Positions 3,484 to 50,410 of a DNA stretch of 64,000 nucleotides are shown here, piece by piece (the stretch's first letter is position 1; every line of letters begins with the position of its first letter). The DNA comes from a virus. A program made the position numbers and the translations under genes. Where the stretch lies: IMG/VR virus record IMGVR_UViG_3300045988_171964. One strand, written 5' to 3'. The notes below the pieces were generated by a model. That model saw nothing but the letters and a program-made list of their open reading frames with translations. It was not told the DNA's origin and searched no databases.

Positions 3484-4101
3484 ATGATAAGATATTATGA
3501 AGATGAAGAGAATGCGGATCATTCCTTTATTCATCTGATGTTAAATACAGATTGTGATAATCATTGCATTTTGTGCTGTAATGACCAATATGATTTAAGT
3601 TCTGTTCCGGTTGTAACGGTTGAGGAACTTAACAACGCAAAAACCGTGTTGCTGACAGGTGGTGAACCTTTCAAAATTCCATACTTTGCAGATTTCGTGC
3701 AAAATCTGCGCGGCCAGTATAAAAACATAGAAAACCTTTATGTTTATACTTCGGGATATTCTATGTACCACAACGTAGAACAATGGAACAAAAATGAGGT
3801 TTATACCGATATAGATGGCGTAAACATCTCACCTAAAGGAACCAATCGTGAGCGTTGGGCTATACAAGGCATGTTGGGAAAGAATGCACTGGATGTTTTC
3901 TTTCATATATTTGCCTCCATGAAAAGCTGCAGGCTTATCTTAATGGACCGTAAGGAGGAAAATGACGAGCTTCTTTCTACATTGAATCTCCAACAATTCA
4001 TAGATCTTGGGGTTCGTTTCGATGTAGAGTATCGTGATTGGCAGAACGAGTTCCAGCCTAATGGAGGGGTGTGGAGAAGATTACCTATATTGTTAAATTA
4101 A
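3484..4101 (+). CDS. radical SAM domain protein
   Basis: CDNHCILC is a CxxxCxxC cluster near the N-terminus, followed by LLTGGEPF (GGEP SAM-binding motif). Length is 205 aa. Confidence 0.6.
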   Translation: MIRYYEDEENADHSFIHLMLNTDCDNHCILCCNDQYDLSSVPVVTVEELNNAKTVLLTGGEPFKIPYFADFVQNLRGQYKNIENLYVYTSGYSMYHNVEQWNKNEVYTDIDGVNISPKGTNRERWAIQGMLGKNALDVFFHIFASMKSCRLILMDRKEENDELLSTLNLQQFIDLGVRFDVEYRDWQNEFQPNGGVWRRLPILLN

Positions 4102-4112
4102 AAAAATAGCGT

Positions 4113-4598
4113 ATGGATTTGAAAGATATTAAGTTTAGGGCAAAGCGCAAGGATACGTTGGATTGGGTGTATGGCCTCCCTGCTCCTGGCAATGCTTATC
4201 CTGGTGCATCTTGCATTCTGACATTTGAATCGCGTAAGGATTTACCTAAAAATGCGGTTTTCCTTGGGTGCGGCTTTATCCCGGTATTAAGTTATACCAT
4301 TTGCCAATATACGGGGATGAAAGATATGTATGGTGCAGAGATTTGGGAGCATGATTTACTTAAAGACGAAAAAACGTCTGGTATATACGAGGTGGTTTAC
4401 TTTAATGGTACATTCGTCTTTCTGAACGAAAGTGATATTTTTCAACCGGAAGGCTACCCCTGCTACAAGAAAGTGGACCATAATGTAATTCGTGATATGT
4501 TTGTTGTCGGGTCAGCCCTTGATGGAGATAGTAGCCGCGATATTCAGGAACTTTGTTCTCGTCTTGCCTCCCGTGGTTTTATCGCAGTTCAAAAGTAA
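4113..4598 (+). CDS. YopX-like protein
   Basis: The IKFRAKRKDTLDWVYG start and overall size resemble the YopX family. The call is weak. Confidence 0.4.
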   Translation: MDLKDIKFRAKRKDTLDWVYGLPAPGNAYPGASCILTFESRKDLPKNAVFLGCGFIPVLSYTICQYTGMKDMYGAEIWEHDLLKDEKTSGIYEVVYFNGTFVFLNESDIFQPEGYPCYKKVDHNVIRDMFVVGSALDGDSSRDIQELCSRLASRGFIAVQK

Positions 4599-41506: not shown

Positions 41507-41547
41507 TGCGGCGGTGAAGTCGTCGCTCTATTAAAACAGAAAAGACT

Positions 41548-41970
41548 ATGAATAAAAGAACAATTCCAGCCTGCATCATGGCTACGCTTGCAGTAGGTGC
41601 AACCGCCACTGCTCCCTATTATGATGTAAATATCACGCAGCAGCTCTGTGCTCCTTCATGCGTGGACGAGACTCCGGTTTTCAACCCTCAGTTCTCTGTA
41701 AAGAGTATTGACAACGTGGGTACTTCGCAATATCTCATAACCATTCACGTAGAGGGTGTTATCAGTTACGTGCCTTGCAACTGTGGCTCCTGCTGCACCC
41801 GCTCGCAGGTAGTAAGTCAGGATTTCACCATTCCTGTTTTCTCTGCTACGGCAATCACGAACGTTACCACATCTCTTGGCAGCGTGAAAAACCGTCTTGT
41901 CAAGGTAGCCTGCTGCTCCTGCAGCAAGACTTTCGTGTGCGATGCTCCGTTAACACTCACCATCGCATGA
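41548..41970 (+). CDS. secreted Cys-rich protein
   Basis: Signal-peptide-like N-terminus MNKRTIPACIMATLAVGATATA and about 12 Cys, including CNCGSCC and CCSCS. Confidence 0.45.
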   Translation: MNKRTIPACIMATLAVGATATAPYYDVNITQQLCAPSCVDETPVFNPQFSVKSIDNVGTSQYLITIHVEGVISYVPCNCGSCCTRSQVVSQDFTIPVFSATAITNVTTSLGSVKNRLVKVACCSCSKTFVCDAPLTLTIA

Positions 41971-44003: not shown

Positions 44004-45104
44004 ATGCAAGAACAAATAAATCTTACAATTCCGAAGGGTTGGAACCAATGTACTCCCTCCCAGTTGGAAGCCCTCGCTGCCATCATGCAGGAGCAGATAG
44101 CCAAAGTAGACCGCTATCACCCCTTCGATATGCAGAAGGTGAAGATAGCCGTCTTCTTCCTTTTTGCGGGGATAAGCATCAATGCCTATCCCGACCCTCG
44201 TCTGCCCCTCAATGAGCAACATTACCTGGTAAGCATAGAGCCGCAGAAGAAGAGCCTCCTGAAGAAGCTACTCTCCCTCTGCGCCCCCGTCCCCAGCGAT
44301 TCTATCGCTGGTCACCCCCAGAGTAGCCATTTCCCCCTCTACCTCTGGCAGCTCAACTATTGGCTCTCCCCGAAAGCCAAGACCGATAATAAGACCTCCC
44401 CTGAGTATATCGCTCAGGGCGCAGGTCTTCTCGATTGGCTGGATGCAGATAGCGGTAATTTTCTCACCCGCTTTCCCTATCCGATTATCGGACAGAAAGC
44501 CAAGTGGTATCGTCGTGCAAAAGCCTTTCGTGGTCCGAACCCAGACCTCGATGGTTTCTCCTGGCAGCAATACCGTTTTGCCAGTGATATGATGCAGACC
44601 TACACCAAGTTAAGCAATAACCTGGTAAAGATGAAGCAGATGAATAAGTTCACCGAGGAGCAACTCCAGACGCAAGCTCAGAGTGTCGCAAGTGCAAGAA
44701 ACATGTTCCTTGCTACCATCTTTAACACCACCACCCAGTACGTCGATCCGACAACAGGCATCACGAAATACGATTTTCATTATGAGTCCAAGCAGTTCAC
44801 CGAGAACGCAGGTTATTTCGTCAAATATCCGGAAGCCAACTGGCAGGTGATATTATTCTGGTGGAGTGGCATCATGCACACCCTAGCCCATCGCTATCCT
44901 CACGTATTTAAGGTGCAGAAGGTAGATAATAAAAAGCCGCAAACCCCGATGGAAATCTACACCGCCACCACCGCCACGATGCAGAAGTATGCTGGCCTAA
45001 CGGAAGATCAGGTCAATACTCAGTCCTATTCCCTCGTTCTCGAACACCTCGAAAGGTTGTCGAAAGAGAATGAGGAAATGGAAAAAATGAGGAGAAACAA
45101 ATGA
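44004..45104 (+). CDS. hypothetical protein; hairpin repeat H7 lies in frame
   Basis: 366-aa ORF. Codons APVPSDSIAG are encoded by H7. ATGA overlap with mini-ORF C1. Confidence 0.5.
   Translation: MQEQINLTIPKGWNQCTPSQLEALAAIMQEQIAKVDRYHPFDMQKVKIAVFFLFAGISINAYPDPRLPLNEQHYLVSIEPQKKSLLKKLLSLCAPVPSDSIAGHPQSSHFPLYLWQLNYWLSPKAKTDNKTSPEYIAQGAGLLDWLDADSGNFLTRFPYPIIGQKAKWYRRAKAFRGPNPDLDGFSWQQYRFASDMMQTYTKLSNNLVKMKQMNKFTEEQLQTQAQSVASARNMFLATIFNTTTQYVDPTTGITKYDFHYESKQFTENAGYFVKYPEANWQVILFWWSGIMHTLAHRYPHVFKVQKVDNKKPQTPMEIYTATTATMQKYAGLTEDQVNTQSYSLVLEHLERLSKENEEMEKMRRNK
44287..44313 (+). repeat. hairpin repeat H7
   Basis: CCGTCCCCAGCGATTCTATCGCTGGTC inside ORF 44004..45104, in the same reading frame as H1. 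Confidence 0.85.
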
Positions 45105-45232
45105 TAGATGTAAAGGCATCTGTACACCCTTTGAGTCATAAACAGAAATGGAAGAAATGGGCGGGGCTTTCTCCTGCACTCAGAGCCACCGATTACAAAT
45201 GCCCACACTGCATAAGGATAGAGTATGAATAA
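45101..45232 (+). CDS. m5C-MTase TRD-like mini-ORF C1 (43 aa)
   Basis: Hand translation: MIDVKASVHPLSHKQKWKKWAGLSPALRATDYKCPHCIRIEYE. It has an xSPxLxA TRD-type block and ends in the TATGAATAA junction. Confidence 0.45.
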   Translation: MIDVKASVHPLSHKQKWKKWAGLSPALRATDYKCPHCIRIEYE

Positions 45233-45356
45233 CCATCGTTTTTATCAATATCCACGAGGCGAGAATAAGGGCGGTATTCTAAATACGGATCTCTGCCCTA
45301 CCATTACCATCAATGCGTGGGAGTCGAACGTTTTTCTGATAAAGAAATATGAATAA
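45225..45356 (+). CDS. m5C-MTase TRD-like mini-ORF C2 (43 aa)
   Basis: Hand translation: MNNHRFYQYPRGENKGGILNTDLCPTITINAWESNVFLIKKYE. Ends in the TATGAATAA junction. Confidence 0.45.
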   Translation: MNNHRFYQYPRGENKGGILNTDLCPTITINAWESNVFLIKKYE

Positions 45357-45675
45357 TAACACCCAACCTCAATACAAGCGAGGAACGATTATCAAGAACG
45401 GAAAGAGATATGGCTTTTATCCTGATGGTTCTCTCTATCGGATATACTCCACCTCCGACCGTCCGTTTCTTGAAATCGTGGATATAGAAGGTAAGACCTT
45501 CCTACGCATTCGTCAGGCAACAGAGCAAGGTTATACCGATTGTCCTGCACCAGGTGCAGCCGATTTAAGCTACCCCTCTTCTGCCCTAAGACGTAGCCGC
45601 ACCGTTGGAGGGGGTAAATTGGTAAATGCACTCACGGCTGCCAGTAGCAATCCGTTTGTGTTTGTAGAATTATAA
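45349..45675 (+). CDS. m5C-MTase TRD-like ORF C3 (108 aa)
   Basis: IRQATEQGYTDCPAPGAADLSYPSSALRRSRTVGGGKLVNALTAASS resembles the ATxxGY...PxSxxRRGRVG...TLT type of TRD. Confidence 0.55.
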   Translation: MNNNTQPQYKRGTIIKNGKRYGFYPDGSLYRIYSTSDRPFLEIVDIEGKTFLRIRQATEQGYTDCPAPGAADLSYPSSALRRSRTVGGGKLVNALTAASSNPFVFVEL

Positions 45676-45704
45676 ACAAAAAAAGATTTATAGAGCAAAA
45701 CAAA

Positions 45705-47006
45705 ATGATAACAAAGTTTAATTTCAAGGATAAGACTATTAAGTCTTATGCCATCCGAAAGCTGACACCCTTCGAGTGTTTCCGACTGATGGGTGTTCGT
45801 GATAACGTGATACAAACCATGCAGAGTACCAATGCCCAGGCAGCCGAACGCATCGCCAACTACAAGGGCAAGGGCAAACCTGAAGATATGGCAGTATCAG
45901 CCAGTCAGCAATACAAGCAGGCAGGTAACTCCATCGTGGTAGATGTGCTCGCAGCCATCTATCAGCAACTCTGGTATCCGAAAGAGCCAAAGCGTGAGGC
46001 ACAGACCTCATTCTTTGCCGATTTCTTCCCAGAAGACCAACTCCCTACCTATCCAGTAGATAAGAACCATGGTGAGAAACTTATCCTCACCACCTTTTCC
46101 GGTTACGACTCGCAGTTGATGGCAGCCGATGTTCTCGCCCAGCAGCACCCTGATTTCCGCTGGACGTGCGTAGGCTGGAGCGATATAGATAAGTATGCCT
46201 GTCAGATGCACAACCTCATCTTTCCGCAGTTTGCTGACAAAGCCTTGGGCGATATAACCAAAATCGACTGGCAACAGGTAAAGAATAATGTGGGGGGGCA
46301 AGAAATCGACCTTTTTACCTATTCTTCACCTTGTCAGGATATATCGCAAGCCGGCAAGCAGATGGGGTTGAAGGAAGGTTCCGATACCCGCTCGGCATTA
46401 TTGTGGCGAGTAGCCGATGCCGTGGAAGTGTTGCGCCCGAAGTATCTGCTTCAGGAGAACGTGGCAGCCCTGGTAAGCGAGAAGTTTCTGCCCGATTTTC
46501 AGAAGTGGCTTGATAAGCTCTCATCTCTCGGTTACGTAAGCCGATGGGCAAGACTCAATGCCAAAGACTATGGTGTTCCGCAGAACCGCGACCGAGTTTT
46601 CTGCCTCTCAATGAGAAAAGATGTAGCCTTCGATTACCAGTTTCCCGACCCTATTCCGCTGAAGAGAAAGTTGGAAGATGTGTTGCAGGAGGAAGTAGAT
46701 ACAAGGTTCTTCTTGAAAGATGAAGCCGTCAGCAAGTTCCTCCAGGCAAACGATAAAGACACCTGCGTCTTCCATCAGTTCGATATAGAGCCGAGCCACG
46801 AGAACGCCATGGCATTGAAAGCCATCCTCACCCTTTATCTGGAAGAGACGCATCTTTGGCATTGCACTCCCCAAGAACTGCAGGAACAGCTTTCTTCCGC
46901 TCACGAGGACATCATTATGCCGCTGTTCAATGACTGGAAAGAGAACGGCAAGTTCGCAAATCCTAAGTTGGAAAGTATGTATCATCATTTTTTGGAGAAG
47001 AAATGA
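45705..47006 (+). CDS. DNA (cytosine-5)-methyltransferase core, circularly permuted (IX-X-I...VIII)
   Basis: Motif order: IX IRKLTPFECFRLMG, X YKQAGNSIVVDVL, I TTFSGYDSQ, IV SSPCQDISQAG, VI LLQENV, VIII GVPQNRDRVF. Contains a G7 tract at 46292-46298. Confidence 0.85.
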   Translation: MITKFNFKDKTIKSYAIRKLTPFECFRLMGVRDNVIQTMQSTNAQAAERIANYKGKGKPEDMAVSASQQYKQAGNSIVVDVLAAIYQQLWYPKEPKREAQTSFFADFFPEDQLPTYPVDKNHGEKLILTTFSGYDSQLMAADVLAQQHPDFRWTCVGWSDIDKYACQMHNLIFPQFADKALGDITKIDWQQVKNNVGGQEIDLFTYSSPCQDISQAGKQMGLKEGSDTRSALLWRVADAVEVLRPKYLLQENVAALVSEKFLPDFQKWLDKLSSLGYVSRWARLNAKDYGVPQNRDRVFCLSMRKDVAFDYQFPDPIPLKRKLEDVLQEEVDTRFFLKDEAVSKFLQANDKDTCVFHQFDIEPSHENAMALKAILTLYLEETHLWHCTPQELQEQLSSAHEDIIMPLFNDWKENGKFANPKLESMYHHFLEKK

Positions 47007-47194
47007 GCAAGAAAAAGATTCGCAATAAGATACCGAAATGCACTCAGTGCTCTGCATCTCTTAATTTCGTTGGTAATGAAGAGTATGGAGATAATGGTTA
47101 TAAGTATCTTTATCATTGTCCGAACTGCAGTGCAGACTTAGAGGTTTTTGAACCTTTGGAAGAAGATAAACCCCAATATCCATTTTGGCAATGA
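47003..47194 (+). CDS. small zinc-ribbon protein
   Basis: CTQC...CPNC four-Cys ribbon. ATGA overlaps at both ends. Confidence 0.5.
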   Translation: MSKKKIRNKIPKCTQCSASLNFVGNEEYGDNGYKYLYHCPNCSADLEVFEPLEEDKPQYPFWQ

Positions 47195-47340
47195 TAAAGG
47201 TAAGTTCTTTAAACCCGGACCCTATCTATCTTGTAGTAAGCAGATGTTTGAAATCACAGTATCAGCGAAACTCGATAGTAAACTTTCTGAAGGCTACAGG
47301 CGGTAGGGCTGCAACGGCTGTAATAGTAAGATATGATTAA
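47191..47340 (+). CDS. TRD-like mini-ORF C4 (49 aa)
   Basis: Hand translation: MIKVSSLNPDPIYLVVSRCLKSQYQRNSIVNFLKATGGRAATAVIVRYD. Ends in the TATGATTAA junction. Confidence 0.45.
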   Translation: MIKVSSLNPDPIYLVVSRCLKSQYQRNSIVNFLKATGGRAATAVIVRYD

Positions 47341-47506
47341 AGGTTTATTTTCATTAAGCATACATCATAAAATGCCGATAAACGTAGATAACGATTGCTT
47401 TCACTGTCCGGTCTGCACTCATTATCATAAGCTGGCATTATCCGATATTCTTCCTGGTTTAAAACGTAGGTGTAATCGTGAGGGTGCTGTAATTGTAGAA
47501 ATATAG
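47333..47506 (+). CDS. mini-ORF C5 (57 aa), Cys4-containing
   Basis: Hand translation: MIKGLFSLSIHHKMPINVDNDCFHCPVCTHYHKLALSDILPGLKRRCNREGAVIVEI. TRD likeness is weak. Confidence 0.35.
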   Translation: MIKGLFSLSIHHKMPINVDNDCFHCPVCTHYHKLALSDILPGLKRRCNREGAVIVEI

Positions 47507-47510
47507 AACT

Positions 47511-47660
47511 ATGAATAGTAATCGCCCTATCATCCTCGGCTCGTATAGCCCATCTCAAAACGGCATAATCGTGCATCCTAAAGGTATTGCCCTATGCCTT
47601 TGTGGAGGGGGCAAAGGGCACGACGTAGATAAACCGAAAATATTATTAGAGTATGAATAA
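47511..47660 (+). CDS. TRD-like mini-ORF C6 (49 aa)
   Basis: Hand translation: MNSNRPIILGSYSPSQNGIIVHPKGIALCLCGGGKGHDVDKPKILLEYE. Confidence 0.45.
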   Translation: MNSNRPIILGSYSPSQNGIIVHPKGIALCLCGGGKGHDVDKPKILLEYE

Positions 47661-47754
47661 GGTTATAATAGATAAAGGCAGCATTCCTCCTTCTGAAGAG
47701 AAAGAGGATGATCCTAATGATATGCCACCCCTCGTATTGATAGAATATGATTAA
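47653..47754 (+). CDS. mini-ORF C7 (33 aa), acidic
   Basis: Hand translation: MNKVIIDKGSIPPSEEKEDDPNDMPPLVLIEYD. It shares only the C-terminal xxLIEYD end with the other cassettes. Confidence 0.3.
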   Translation: MNKVIIDKGSIPPSEEKEDDPNDMPPLVLIEYD

Positions 47755-47923
47755 GATATTAGCCATTCACGAGGCGAGAACAGAGCACGCAAAGGAAGTA
47801 CGCAAGCAGACTGGCACCAACGATTATCGGGATAAAGCCATCTTCTTTCGTGACAGCTTCCTGATGCAGTGCATCGGTACCTTCCACACGAAGGATAATC
47901 TCCTTGCCTTCAGATATGAATAA
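47747..47923 (+). CDS. TRD-like mini-ORF C8 (58 aa)
   Basis: Hand translation: MIKILAIHEARTEHAKEVRKQTGTNDYRDKAIFFRDSFLMQCIGTFHTKDNLLAFRYE. Same type as C10. Confidence 0.45.
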   Translation: MIKILAIHEARTEHAKEVRKQTGTNDYRDKAIFFRDSFLMQCIGTFHTKDNLLAFRYE

Positions 47924-47932
47924 AGAAAAGTT

Positions 47933-48097
47933 ATGAAAGAAATACATCCGATAGTAGTAGGCTTGCTGAATATGCCTCCGTTTGATAAGCGTTTTCAGCT
48001 GGCAAAACGAGTGTATGCAGTAAAAGGCATAGCCCCTGCTTGTAATACATGTGGAGGGGGTGGACTTCAGCCCAAAATATTTGTGGAATATGATTAG
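47933..48097 (+). CDS. TRD-like mini-ORF C9 (54 aa)
   Basis: Hand translation: MKEIHPIVVGLLNMPPFDKRFQLAKRVYAVKGIAPACNTCGGGGLQPKIFVEYD. Preceded by the 6-codon linker ORF 47916..47936. Confidence 0.45.
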   Translation: MKEIHPIVVGLLNMPPFDKRFQLAKRVYAVKGIAPACNTCGGGGLQPKIFVEYD

Positions 48098-48272
48098 GCA
48101 AGCCATCATTACTCACTATCGAACCGAGGAAGCGAAGGCATATCGCAAGATACACGGCGACAGAGGCGGTTGCCGTTATAAGGATAAATACCATCGTCCA
48201 AGCCCATCACCCTGGAGTAACTGCATTTCCACCGTAACAAAAGATAATCTTTTATGGCAGCAATACGAATAA
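48090..48272 (+). CDS. TRD-like mini-ORF C10 (60 aa)
   Basis: MIRQAIITHYRTEEAKAYRKIHGDRGGCRYKDKYHRPSPSPWSNCISTVTKDNLLWQQYE (C-terminal part of track ORF 48051..48272). Confidence 0.45.
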   Translation: MIRQAIITHYRTEEAKAYRKIHGDRGGCRYKDKYHRPSPSPWSNCISTVTKDNLLWQQYE

Positions 48273-48412
48273 GAACCTGCGCAAGCAGAGGCAGAGCAGA
48301 TGGAGATTGGTATTCCAATCCTCACTCCCAAAGGTTAGAAATCGGGGGGGGTATCAGTAACGCCATCTCCTCCATCGCCAAGGATTTCATGATCATTATC
48401 AATTATGAATAA
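48254..48412 (+). CDS. TRD-like mini-ORF C11 (52 aa)
   Basis: Hand translation: MAAIRIRTCASRGRADGDWYSNPHSQRLEIGGGISNAISSIAKDFMIIINYE. The G8 tract at 48344-48351 encodes GGG. Confidence 0.45.
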   Translation: MAAIRIRTCASRGRADGDWYSNPHSQRLEIGGGISNAISSIAKDFMIIINYE

Positions 48413-48424
48413 AAAGAGGAGCCA

Positions 48425-48451
48425 CCGTTCCCAGCGATTCTATCGCTGGTC
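48425..48451 (+). repeat. hairpin repeat H8
   Basis: 27-mer identical to H10 and H11. Lies after the MTase array and 12 nt upstream of promoter e. Confidence 0.85.
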
Positions 48452-48461
48452 CCCTCCCCTC

Positions 48462-48498
48462 TTTGTCCCCACCAAAACCACAAAAACCCCTAACTTTA
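48462..48498 (+). promoter_or_regulatory. phage promoter e
   Basis: TTTGTCCCC, 25-nt gap, TAACTTTA (variant -7 box). Upstream of the portal candidate. Confidence 0.5.
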
Positions 48499-48592
48499 CA
48501 CTCAGAAATAGAGAAAAAAGCGGGCGCGCGTATATCGCCACCCTTCTCTCTTTCCATCACATTCAGGATAACATAAAAAAAGAAACGCAAAA

Positions 48593-50410
48593 ATGGCAAG
48601 CAAAAACAAAAACAGAGTAACCAACCTGCAGCAGCTCCTAAATCGTAGTGAGGAACTGAAAGATGCAGGCTATGTAGCCGTTCGCCCGGATGCCTTTACG
48701 CCGCTTAAAAATGGCGGCGGTAAAGTCTTTTCCTGGAACGACTACGTTCACGGCATGCTCCTAACCACAGCCGGTATGTCGGCAAGCGGTGGCGACACAG
48801 GCGGTTCTGCAGCACGTCAGCAAGTCTCCACTATCTTTGCATCGAGTGGCGGCGAGAACCTGGGTAAACCGAAGGACGTAGGTACCGAAGGCTTAGGCTT
48901 TATGGAATGGGGTATGGCCAACCGACTGCCAAATCTTATCTGGATGCTTTCCCGTATGTCGCCTTTTACAGCAGCAGGAGTAGATTACATCAAGAAGATA
49001 CTGGTAGGTCGCGGTCCCGCAGCCAAGTATCATTACACCCAGTACGTTGGCGGTAACATCACGGAGAAGTATATCCCCTACGAGAGCGCAGGAGTTCTTC
49101 TCCGAGGTCAGATAGCTGACCTCAAAGCCAAGGAAGAGGCAGCCGCCGAAGCCAAGCGCCAGAACGAGCAGCAGAACCAGAACGGGCAGTCTCAACAGGA
49201 GGAGTCTCCGTTCTCTGCGGTTCAATCGCAGGTCTTATCCACCGATGAAGAGGAAAGCGAGGAGATGAAATCCCTGAAAGAAGCACTCCACAAATGGGAA
49301 GAAACCAATGCCCAGCTTCGTGATTTCTTAGAAAACAACGACCTGATGCAGACCTTCCTCGATTTGGCAGGAGATATGGCTTTGATGTCACAATGCTTTG
49401 TAGAACTTCAGCTTAATCAGCGTTCCCTCGACGAGAACGGCAAAGCTGTTCCCACCGCTCAATGGACTCCGAAGGTGATCGGTCTGAAGCATCGCAGTAT
49501 CTTCACTACCCGACTGGAGCGCATGGACGAGAACTACCGCATCAACTATGCCTACGTCAGCAATCAGTGGCTCGACCCTACCCAATACGTCGGTGTGCAG
49601 AAAGAGGAAGACCGCAAGATAGCGGCTATCCCTTATCTCCCTACCCCATCAGCCGTGAAGGATTTGCAGCGCAAGATACGCGAGGCACGTCAGAAGAACG
49701 TAAGCCGCAAGAAACGCCCTACTCGCTTCATCATGTCGCCAAGAGATTTCGGCGGTCCATACTATGCCGATGCCCTTTGGCACTCCATCTTTGCCGGCAG
49801 CATTTTTGAGTATGCCTTCACCATCGTAGATGACCGCCTTACCCGAAAGCGCAACAGTAACATCATCGGTAGAGTTATCTATATCCATCAGGACTATATC
49901 AGCAGGCTCTATCAGCAGCAGGGTGAGAAGAAAAAGAAGACCCAGGGCGAGATTCAGAACGAAATCTTTACCTCTATCAATACCTGGCTCTCTAACCCCG
50001 ATAATGCTGGTCAGGCGCTCATTTCCTCTGCCTTCACGGGCAGCGATGGGAATGAGCACAAAGCTTGGGAAATCGTAGAAATCGAAACCAAGGCAAATGA
50101 TCAGGCGAATGCCGACAAAACCGAGTTGCAGGAAATAAGCAGCATCATCTTCTTTGCCATGGGACTTGATGCAAAGCTCATTGGTAATACCCCTGGCGAT
50201 ACGGCATCATCGGGCGGTACAGACCTGAGAGAGCGCTTCCTTGTCAAGCAAATCCAGTTTGCTCCTTTACAGCAGTTAATGATACGCCCGTTGGAAGTTT
50301 TGAGCCGATTCAACGATTGGGATGAGCACCTGGTATGGCAGATAGACCGAGAGGTATTGACCACCCTCGATAACTCGAAGACCGGAGTGGCGAAACAAGA
50401 GGCCTCTTAA
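48593..50410 (+). CDS. portal protein candidate
   Basis: 605 aa, first gene after promoter e and at the head of a structural operon. The call rests on size and position only. Confidence 0.35.
   Translation: MASKNKNRVTNLQQLLNRSEELKDAGYVAVRPDAFTPLKNGGGKVFSWNDYVHGMLLTTAGMSASGGDTGGSAARQQVSTIFASSGGENLGKPKDVGTEGLGFMEWGMANRLPNLIWMLSRMSPFTAAGVDYIKKILVGRGPAAKYHYTQYVGGNITEKYIPYESAGVLLRGQIADLKAKEEAAAEAKRQNEQQNQNGQSQQEESPFSAVQSQVLSTDEEESEEMKSLKEALHKWEETNAQLRDFLENNDLMQTFLDLAGDMALMSQCFVELQLNQRSLDENGKAVPTAQWTPKVIGLKHRSIFTTRLERMDENYRINYAYVSNQWLDPTQYVGVQKEEDRKIAAIPYLPTPSAVKDLQRKIREARQKNVSRKKRPTRFIMSPRDFGGPYYADALWHSIFAGSIFEYAFTIVDDRLTRKRNSNIIGRVIYIHQDYISRLYQQQGEKKKKTQGEIQNEIFTSINTWLSNPDNAGQALISSAFTGSDGNEHKAWEIVEIETKANDQANADKTELQEISSIIFFAMGLDAKLIGNTPGDTASSGGTDLRERFLVKQIQFAPLQQLMIRPLEVLSRFNDWDEHLVWQIDREVLTTLDNSKTGVAKQEAS

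Follow-up and report, generated by a model that had tools for sequence, protein, structure and literature searches.

How can one cytosine methyltransferase come to stand in a chain of very short genes, each closed by a stop codon of its own? The question is raised by a locus in a 64,000-nucleotide stretch of viral DNA (IMG/VR record IMGVR_UViG_3300045988_171964, the whole of which is referred to hereafter as the window), where 14 open reading frames (ORFs) and one six-codon micro-ORF follow each other along the plus strand from 45101 to 48620 with stops and starts that overlap or nearly abut. Eleven of these are mini-ORFs of 33–108 codons, each with a separate stop, which we call cassettes; the ORF chain that an earlier reading of the sequence (the original prediction) had described from 45101 is present, and re-reading of the coordinates places C1–C3 upstream of the methyltransferase core and C4–C11 downstream. 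We propose, with a probability of roughly two in three, that the cassettes encode free-standing, translationally coupled target-recognition domain (TRD) subunits that dock on a TRD-less C5-cytosine methyltransferase (C5-MTase) core and give the phage broad anti-restriction methylation. Free-standing specificity subunits were one of several readings offered in the original prediction, and are the best supported of them by virtue of in-frame purifying selection, conserved starts, the placing of one family before or after the core, and fusions found in nature.

The core (45705..47006, 433 aa) is the sole ORF of the chain to match PF00145 (E 1.6e-50, in two stretches), in agreement with the claim that catalytic motifs are confined to it. 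Alignment to M.MpeI (4dkj) corrects the earlier picture of the core: residues 13–58 of the core align to positions 331–376 (motifs IX–X) and residues 187–358 to positions 112–286, such that the enzyme is circularly permuted. The order is an N-terminal β-hairpin, motifs IX and X (IRKLTPFECFRLMG and AGNSIVVDV, residues ~17–82, before motif I), motifs I–VIII (I, FSGYDSQ, for FxGxG; IV, SSPCQDIS, with the PCQ and catalytic Cys; VI, QENV; VIII, QNRDR) and a helical C-terminal domain of ~80 aa, with all ten conserved motifs held within the one 433-aa chain. The N-terminus reads MITKFNFKDKTIKSYAIRKLTP, the chain starting 12 residues ahead of motif IX. No TRD was found in the core chain: motif VIII is followed by the helical domain, and no cassette-family profile matches the core. 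An AlphaFold model of P0001 (95% identical to the core) shows the hairpin (residues 2–6 and 11–15) running into the helix of motif IX, then a large domain of normal form and the helical C-terminal domain, and finds its best structural matches in M.MpeI, M.HhaI and M.HaeIII. Circular permutation places both chain ends at the usual TRD site, leaving an empty socket, and the constancy of core length (432–433 aa among ~100 close relatives in the protein database) indicates that the core is not normally fused.

The core protein is very common across human-gut metagenomes. Two near-identical copies are named in NCBI, DAU84186.1 ([quoted passage not shown]) and one from a Prevotella sp. metagenome-assembled genome. 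Core fragments of 172–220 aa (P0149–P0158) share a 90%-identity cluster with the intact core, several of them on contigs of up to ~103–105 kb, which suggests that in some phages the core gene is broken up, or that its start has been called internally.

The chain is held together by its junctions. In 8 of the 11 cassettes the C-terminal end is Tyr-Glu/Asp-stop and the next ATG sits inside these codons, producing the motif TATGAWTAR. This motif occurs ten times in the 64-kb window, on the plus strand every time, and nine of the ten lie within 45224–48404, where roughly 0.1 would be expected; shuffled sequence yields 3.3 over both strands of the entire window, and in 100 trials never got to 10. 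The claim that the mini-ORFs are non-random is upheld. The junction follows the pattern RRR-TAT-GAW-TAA, within which the ATG is conserved, and the ORF that follows lies most often in the +1 frame. C4 and C10 truly begin at the junction ATGs at 47191 and 48090, for which mechanical listing had given an upstream TTG and GTG, respectively. At the C10/C11 junction the Tyr codon is TAC, and C11 starts at a different ATG in another frame. Junction geometries range over the 8-nt overlap, an ATGA overlap, a gap bridged by the micro-ORF and a 29-nt gap ahead of the core.

Several simpler accounts of such a chain were considered and rejected. Recent tandem duplication of cassettes is ruled out in that the 15–21-nt junctions are the sole DNA-level repeat in the locus; stop-codon reassignment is ruled out by the change of frame from ORF to ORF and by long ORFs elsewhere in the window that are normal under code 11; introns or inteins are ruled out because the cassettes abut or overlap. 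A scan of the window found no Rfam family, so no known ribozyme or intron accounts for the junctions. Promoter and terminator counts between 43 and 51 kb equalled those of shuffled sequence (Bacteroidetes promoters being outside the scan), with no plus-strand terminator within the array. The sole TATGAATAA outside the array lies at 41547–41555, at the start of a 140-aa ORF (41548–41970), and the 8-nt stop-start overlap may also serve elsewhere in the genome.

We next consider what the cassettes encode. When the cassettes were concatenated and searched against 5.8 billion proteins, all 26 matches proved to be PF00145 enzymes, and most of those examined carry several tandem TRDs per chain (up to about eight) with "..L-x-E-P" linkers (e.g. 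P0002, P0004 and P0008). For six cassettes (C1, C2, C3, C9, C10 and C11) the blastp alignment covers a single TRD module, lying between motifs VIII and IX of the subject and bounded as the cassette is; C8 aligns in like manner but weakly. The cassettes end where the linker or the next module of the subject starts. The resemblance of the mini-ORFs to TRDs asserted in the original prediction therefore stands for C1, C2, C3 and C8–C11 and, more weakly, for C4 and C6, whereas C5 and C7 show no TRD similarity; the further proposal that cassettes represent only the distal part of a TRD gives way to a match, in C1, C2, C3 and C8–C11, to the whole module. Family profiles built from 81 loci (see below) match TRDs for families 2, 3, 5, 6, 12, 0, 47, 4, 7, 11 and 38 with independent E-values (i-E) of 5e-20 to 1e-3, meaning that at least 11 of ~23 cassette families have a TRD profile match at i-E ≤ 1e-3; families 36 and 49 are weak (~7e-3). 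No free cassette protein appeared among the matches of one protein-database search made with the cassettes, in which a word filter may have hidden them.

The cassettes are maintained as genes in related gut phages. The related set comprised 80 IMG/VR contigs (mostly 50–110 kb, core 67–97% identical), or 81 loci with the window. The junction motif clusters round the core in nearly all 80 contigs, throughout which each module keeps its own ATG and stop while frames change; the small plus-strand ORFs of these loci cluster into at least 23 cassette families, with a median of 10 and a maximum of 15 full-length free cassettes per phage (11 in the window). Pooled over 22 families with overlapping ends excluded, the ratio of non-synonymous to synonymous change (dN/dS) is 0.17 in frame versus 1.41 and 1.55 in the other frames; values for individual families run from 0.11 to 0.32 (20 families; core 0.09), at a synonymous divergence (pS) of 0.2–0.6 in most families. 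Constraint of this kind marks the cassettes as genes, not debris. Among 841 near-full-length cassettes the next ATG overlaps by 8 nt in 53% and as ATGA in 7%, and 55% end in Y-D or Y-E; a second class of cassette ends in Val-Glu-Leu-stop with an ATGA overlap. Some 74% of ORF pieces with a family match are full length.

Comparison across related genomes, suggested in the original prediction as a means to detect cassette gain, loss or reordering, reveals that content varies, order is partly kept and junctions are conserved; presence/absence differences are frequent even at 93–97% core identity. The same cassette family can lie upstream of the core in one phage and downstream in another, and two loci have an intact core with no adjoining cassette in the 5 kb fetched each side (L033 and L042, the latter with two cassettes ~4 kb downstream). 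This freedom of position relative to the core fits action in trans. A blastn search of the locus against INPHARED phages gave no match.

The split arrangement extends well beyond this group. Searching 1.84 billion representative proteins yielded further permuted cores, among them four without a TRD (P0190, P0200, P0219 and P0242), on whose contigs free TRD mini-genes adjoin the core; an IMG/VR search for relatives of P0190 and P0242 found none. One such locus (L160) has two adjacent mini-genes (ends WIEYI and LLIEY) and two more ~3 kb downstream, another (L162) has five consecutive mini-genes with short stop-start overlaps (ends EVYEL, EVYAI, EVYEL, EIYYV and VIYEL), and a third (L161) has several upstream of the core. 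Scanning a single genome for each GTDB species, with profile searches to follow, added the split form in L170/171, L174, L176, L177, L178, L185, L186 and L188 (core 38–47% identical), the last being contig NZ_BEWV01000204.1 of the isolate Prevotella sp. MGM1, on which more than eight cassettes accompany the core; overall, free TRD mini-genes stand beside distant cores of 38–48% identity. The stop-start junction is kept from 97% down to 38% core identity. The Glu-Tyr-Glu/Asp tail is likewise kept in lineages with different stop-start overlaps (with as many as six further residues behind it on the contig of Prevotella sp. MGM1), and is consequently a protein-level feature, not only a by-product of the ATG overlap.

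Nature has also joined the two parts. P0169 reads TRD-TRD-IX-X-I-VIII; P0195, P0256, P0341 and P0355 consist of a family-14-like TRD, a short linker and a core that retains its start Met (in P0195 and P0256 the linker is 9 residues, followed by "MIAQIN..FDIRKL"); and P0001 is a core with a C6-type TRD, a rare variant that arises where the 3′ end of the core gene is frameshifted and the reading frame runs on into the next cassette. The same TRD families occur inside one 400–730-aa ORF in Prevotella sp. MGM2, Duncaniella muris, Enterococcus termitis and others, while P0015, P0018 and P0019 combine a TRD array with motifs IX–X and have no motifs I–VIII. Fusions in relatives constitute Rosetta-stone evidence that TRD and core act together.

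These distant loci hold further features. Within the array of L188, a 118-aa ORF (3814–4170) identified by eye looks like an HNH homing endonuclease (..HRLVAMSF..HKDGNRSNNHYKNLVW), and appears to split a family-4 TRD cassette, the pieces of which lie on either side. A sister clade of permuted cores carries an acidic insertion of ~100–250 aa between motifs IX and X (alignment A2, columns 115–235), and in L161 (783–2654) a C9-type TRD ORF (1030–1209; ..RRLYSPMGIAPTIYNYGAGGNLVPLMLIEY) lies in another frame within the acidic insertion. Many database entries of this sister clade begin only after motif IX, a sign, perhaps, that the enzyme has been split once more.

How might such a system operate? 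We envisage a multispecific C5-MTase that has been dismantled into one catalytic core and many specificity subunits. All cassettes lie on one strand in a chain of stop-start overlaps, on which grounds we propose that they are probably translated successively, by termination-reinitiation, from one transcript. Permutation would put the chain ends at the TRD insertion point, such that an uninterrupted catalytic chain could accept a free TRD, and each TRD mini-protein would dock on the core, most likely by way of its conserved C-terminal tail: two hydrophobic residues, then Glu, Tyr and Glu/Asp, would pair with the hairpin at the N-terminus of the core and with motif IX. C5-MTases cut beside the TRD are known to complement efficiently, and permuted variants are active (PMC5944983). 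Each cassette would direct methylation to its own short sequence; one core with about ten TRDs could then methylate about ten motifs in the phage DNA and protect it from many host restriction enzymes. Separate genes with a common 15–20-nt junction would allow cassettes to be gained, lost and exchanged between related phages, the junction repeat presumably promoting that exchange. In its most explicit form, a "socket-and-plug" methyltransferase whose permuted core is programmed in trans by 7–15 interchangeable TRD mini-proteins (33–108 aa) with a shared C-terminal docking tail, the proposal is in our judgment slightly better than an even bet. Translation of every ORF, docking in trans, one specificity per cassette and the anti-restriction role are all steps that we infer from the genes themselves.

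Several observations weigh against free-standing subunits. About ten cassette families, roughly half, have no detectable TRD match by profile, and C5 and C7 in the window match no TRD or fused methyltransferase by blastp or family profile. A PF00145 search on each mini-ORF, proposed earlier as a check, gave no match, and a PDB sequence search with all cassettes at E ≤ 10 was equally negative; PHROGs returned two marginal matches only, to families without known function. PF00145 lacks the variable TRD region, so its silence is not evidence against TRD identity, and the negatives from all three sources are expected of cassettes that are themselves the variable region. Approximately 15% of cassette instances are, by our estimate, broken by frameshifts, and only 28 of 74 ORF pieces of the C1 family are intact, indicating that some decay is ongoing. 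AlphaFold2 runs on P0001 and P0195 gave cores at pLDDT 70–95 but left the TRDs below 50, with no docking geometry to be read from either model. The proposal further calls for the mini-ORFs to be translated and for the core to bind and catalyze with a lone 43–60-aa TRD, both of which we infer; to our knowledge, there is no C5-MTase whose TRD is severed from motif VIII as well as from motif IX.

These points bear directly on the alternatives. The mini-proteins could be made and yet not work with the core, acting instead as decoys or inhibitors that bind host restriction sites or enzymes, or as regulators of the methyltransferase. Purifying selection shows that the mini-proteins matter, not what they do; C7 is acidic with no TRD-like center, a Cys/His cluster is present in C5, and the TRD was docked on the core in neither of the AlphaFold runs. 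We nevertheless regard a separate function as unlikely: a core without a TRD would have no sequence recognition, in relatives, these TRD families are covalently part of a core of this kind, and cassettes adjoin a TRD-less core in several independent lineages. A second possibility is that recoding (frameshift, bypass or read-through at the junctions) yields a multi-TRD or TRD-core fusion, for which the high conservation of the junction, the usual +1 relation of the next frame, the existence of fused multi-TRD enzymes and the rare frameshift fusions (P0001, and C9 with C10 in L010 and L014) might be cited. Against this, the ATG is part of the conserved element, and where the Tyr codon is TAC (C10/C11) the next ORF takes another ATG in another frame; junction geometry is variable, and neither a slippery heptamer nor an Rfam element was found at the junctions. 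Forward translation, moreover, cannot join downstream cassettes to the N-terminal side of motif IX, and the frameshift fusions wreck the tail of the upstream TRD. The multi-TRD fusions by recoding entertained in the original prediction are accordingly without support, and we hold them to be quite improbable.

Two further readings treat the cassettes as inactive. As a silent archive they would recombine into an expression site fused to the core, switching specificity as in pilin or hsdS systems, an idea with which the differing cassette content of closely related phages and the 15–21-nt junction repeat common to the cassettes would agree. Yet no regular in-frame expression site is seen among the ~100 close relatives, all cassettes lie on one strand, flanking ORFs scanned with Pfam and PHROGs contain no recombinase domain, and the longest inverted repeat at the locus is 17 nt at 82% complementarity; a silent copy, furthermore, needs no ATG and stop of its own, and both are maintained. 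The switching reservoir suggested earlier thus finds no backing, and we consider it more improbable still than recoding. Least credible of all is that the locus represents the decaying wreck of a once-fused multispecific methyltransferase gene. Cassettes are frameshifted in some genomes (the C1 family and the C9–C10 fusions of L010 and L014), and the 90%-identity cluster of the core also takes in truncated core fragments of 172–214 aa, from contigs of up to ~104 kb, but the in-frame constraint set out above (0.17 versus ~1.5 off frame, and low in every family) at appreciable pS, the 74% of family-matching pieces that are full length and the persistence of one stop-start junction from 97% to 38% core identity lead us to reject ordered decay, another of the earlier readings, as a general explanation, broken cassettes in some genomes notwithstanding.

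With free-standing subunits as the preferred reading, we turn to the individual members of the array, all on the plus strand. C1 (45101–45232, 43 aa, family 3) contains SPALRATDYKCPH and ends IEYE-stop; it matches TRD modules of P0015, P0018 and P0019 by blastp (E 1.3e-11), and its family hidden Markov model (HMM) gives 1e-16. C2 (45225–45356, 43 aa, family 5; QYPRGENKGG..CPTITINAWESN, end KYE-stop) matches P0013 (1.8e-14) and P0002 (2e-7), the residues of P0002 right after the match opening a new module; its family HMM gives 5e-20. C3 (45349–45675, 108 aa, family 6) ends VEL-stop 29 nt ahead of the core and in a different frame; its residues 52–105 form the TRD module (IRQATEQGY..YPSSALRRSR..ALTA; blastp P0003 7e-14, P0004 3.5e-11; family HMM 5e-16; dN/dS 0.107), and its N-terminal 50 aa have no match.

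Downstream of the core, C4 (47191–47340, 49 aa, family 38; SRCLKSQY...FLKATGG...AVIVRYD) has a weak match by family HMM only (1e-3, to the first TRD of P0003), and is found in 18 loci with a dN/dS of 0.18. C5 (47333–47506, 57 aa, family 45), which bears the Cys/His cluster and ends VIVEI-stop, is kept in 11 loci at 77–100% identity. C6 (47511–47660, 49 aa; LGSYSPSQNG..GIALCLCGGGKG..PKILLEYE) belongs to family 4, the most widespread cassette family (73 of 81 loci); it shares 94% identity with the last 49 aa of P0001, and has a weak HMM match to a P0019 TRD (5e-4) and a dN/dS of 0.13. C7 (47653–47754, 33 aa, family 28) is acidic (SEEKEDDPND) and keeps only the common cassette tail, PPLVLIEYD; it occurs in 18 loci under purifying selection (dN/dS 0.17), and judged by its sequence may be a TRD-less "blank plug" that fills the TRD socket without reading DNA.

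C8 (47747–47923, 58 aa; RTEHAKEVRK...QCIGTFHTKDNLL, end RYE-stop) has a weak blastp match to P0023 and P0024 (4e-3) and clusters with C10. The micro-ORF MNKEKL (47916–47936, six codons) starts at the C8 junction ATG, and its TGA overlaps the ATG of C9, leaving the chain unbroken. C9 (47933–48097, 54 aa; RVYAVKGIAPACNTCGGGGLQPKIFVEYD) has a best blastp E of 7e-13. C10 (48090–48272, 60 aa; RTEEAKAYRK...SNCISTVTKDNLL, end QYE-stop) matches P0002 (5.9e-6), P0019 (2e-5) and P0004 (3e-5), where the subject continues with an "EP" linker. C11 (48254–48412, 52 aa, family 2; SRGR...QRLEIGGGISNAISSIAKD, end NYE-stop) matches P0002 (3.4e-7), and its family HMM gives 5e-19. Clustering bears out the original grouping of C8 with C10 and dissolves that of C1, C2, C4, C6 and C9, each of which falls in a different cassette family; C9 clusters with C8 and C10 solely through the frameshift-fused C9+C10 ORFs.

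Three other ORFs adjoin these. Ahead of the array, a 366-aa ORF (44004–45104) has no Pfam or PHROG match; its stop overlaps the C1 start (ATGA), coupling it to the cassette chain, and it precedes the array in the closest phage group only, not in more distant phages. A 63-aa zinc-ribbon ORF (47003–47194, CxxC...CxxC) has an ATGA overlap with the core stop and is present in 12 related loci; its zinc-ribbon Pfam matches are sub-threshold only (the best, CapR homology domain, being below the cut-off), and blastp and family profiles detect no TRD similarity. At the far end, a basic 71-aa ORF (48405–48620) starts at the last junction ATG and also lacks TRD similarity by blastp and family profiles; it is probably a leader of, or part of, the next gene, a 605-aa structural gene (48593–50410) with no family match. 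In L001 (7698–9704) the 71-aa and 605-aa ORFs are a single 668-aa ORF, so that either the window or L001 must be frameshifted where the large structural gene begins.

The window belongs to a tailed phage: a 2072-aa ORF matches PF10145 (phage minor-tail, tape-measure-type) and another ORF matches the phrog_53 head protease. Most other window ORFs tested have no family match, and no tRNAs were found in the window. The phages are ~100-kb human-gut phages, probably of Prevotella or other Bacteroidales; host assignment is weak, with related contigs also binned with Oscillibacter and Clostridium. Across the window (1–64000) GGCC, GATC and CGCG are avoided, with observed/expected ratios (O/E) of 0.21, 0.25 and 0.39, as are the hexamers ATGCAT (0 observed versus 18.6 expected), GATATC (1 versus 36.5), CATATG (1 versus 14) and GGCGCC (0 versus 8.7), whereas GCGC (O/E 0.96), ACGT (0.91) and TCGA (0.81) are not. 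Such strong palindrome avoidance indicates heavy restriction pressure on the phage, which fits an anti-restriction role for the array, and the non-avoided C-containing sites may be those protected by methylation.

If the proposal is correct, the locus would be the first to encode a C5-MTase whose specificity subunits are detachable, no other catalytic chain would serve so many specificities, and some abundant gut phages would combine many-motif methylation with strong restriction-site avoidance. The cassettes would be exchangeable genetic units shuffled between gut phages via a common junction, the specificity repertoire turning over by single cassettes. Action in trans, if true, would render the C5-MTase recognition module truly autonomous. 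Ever since the Bacillus phage enzymes were described it has been asked how a single catalytic domain makes use of alternative TRDs; we found no structure of a multispecific C5-MTase, although no systematic check was made, and a free TRD with a TRD-less core is a far simpler structural target than an eight-TRD chain. The same components would supply at least 23 small recognition modules, ready-made by nature for one core and attractive for programmable methylation. At 33–60 aa, the roughly ten conserved genes per genome are small enough for gene callers to miss.

The original prediction could not match the array to any described system, and in this it holds: no free-standing TRD genes were found in the full-text literature searched, the Proxi-RIMS-seq2 paper included, with most subscription journals outside coverage and an earlier report therefore possible. 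The nearest relatives are the multispecific C5-MTases of Bacillus phages (M.SPRI, M.Phi3TI, M.Rho11sI and M.H2I), together with the fused P0002, P0004 and P0008 (5–8 TRDs), in which one core serves several TRDs of ~40–60 aa. The locus shares with them homologous TRD families with the same module boundaries, and a phage setting without a linked restriction enzyme, where self-protection is presumed; the seven cassettes that match distinct TRD modules, and with weaker support C4 and C6, would presumably serve the adjoining core. Multispecific enzymes, however, hold all TRDs in one chain between motifs VIII and IX, joined by "..L-x-E-P" linkers, whereas here start and stop are separate for every TRD, the permuted core contains none, and the modules are more numerous (11 here, up to 15 per phage).

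Permutation itself has natural precedents in M.BssHII, M.Alw26I, M2.Eco31I, M.Esp3I and M2.BsaI, which follow the order TRD-IX-X-I-VIII (PMC5944983). As in those enzymes, motifs IX–X precede I–VIII and the permutation point lies in the variable region, and P0169 and P0195 have the same fused order; their TRD is N-terminal, whereas the core here begins after the TRD position, at the short hairpin before motif IX. Division into separate polypeptides is also familiar, M.EcoHK31I alpha/beta being a split C5-MTase. Further cases are the natural M.AquI alpha/beta and the engineered fragments of M.SssI, M.MpeI and M.BspRI (PMC5944983). In these enzymes activity arises from separate polypeptides cut beside the TRD, as is proposed here, and P0015, P0018 and P0019 resemble the AquI beta subunit; split C5-MTases nonetheless divide their motifs over two chains and leave the TRD attached to IX–X, whereas here the ten motifs stay together and the TRD alone is detached, in many copies. 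Type I HsdS offers a functional analogy only, in that a separate specificity polypeptide programs the methyltransferase and alternative specificity genes are clustered; HsdS is of an unrelated fold and class (N6-adenine) and relies on inverted repeats and a recombinase to present one specificity at a time, whereas here all would be expressed together. Set beside these systems, the array is a real, conserved and selected feature, a variation on a known enzyme type for which a trans mechanism is plausible.

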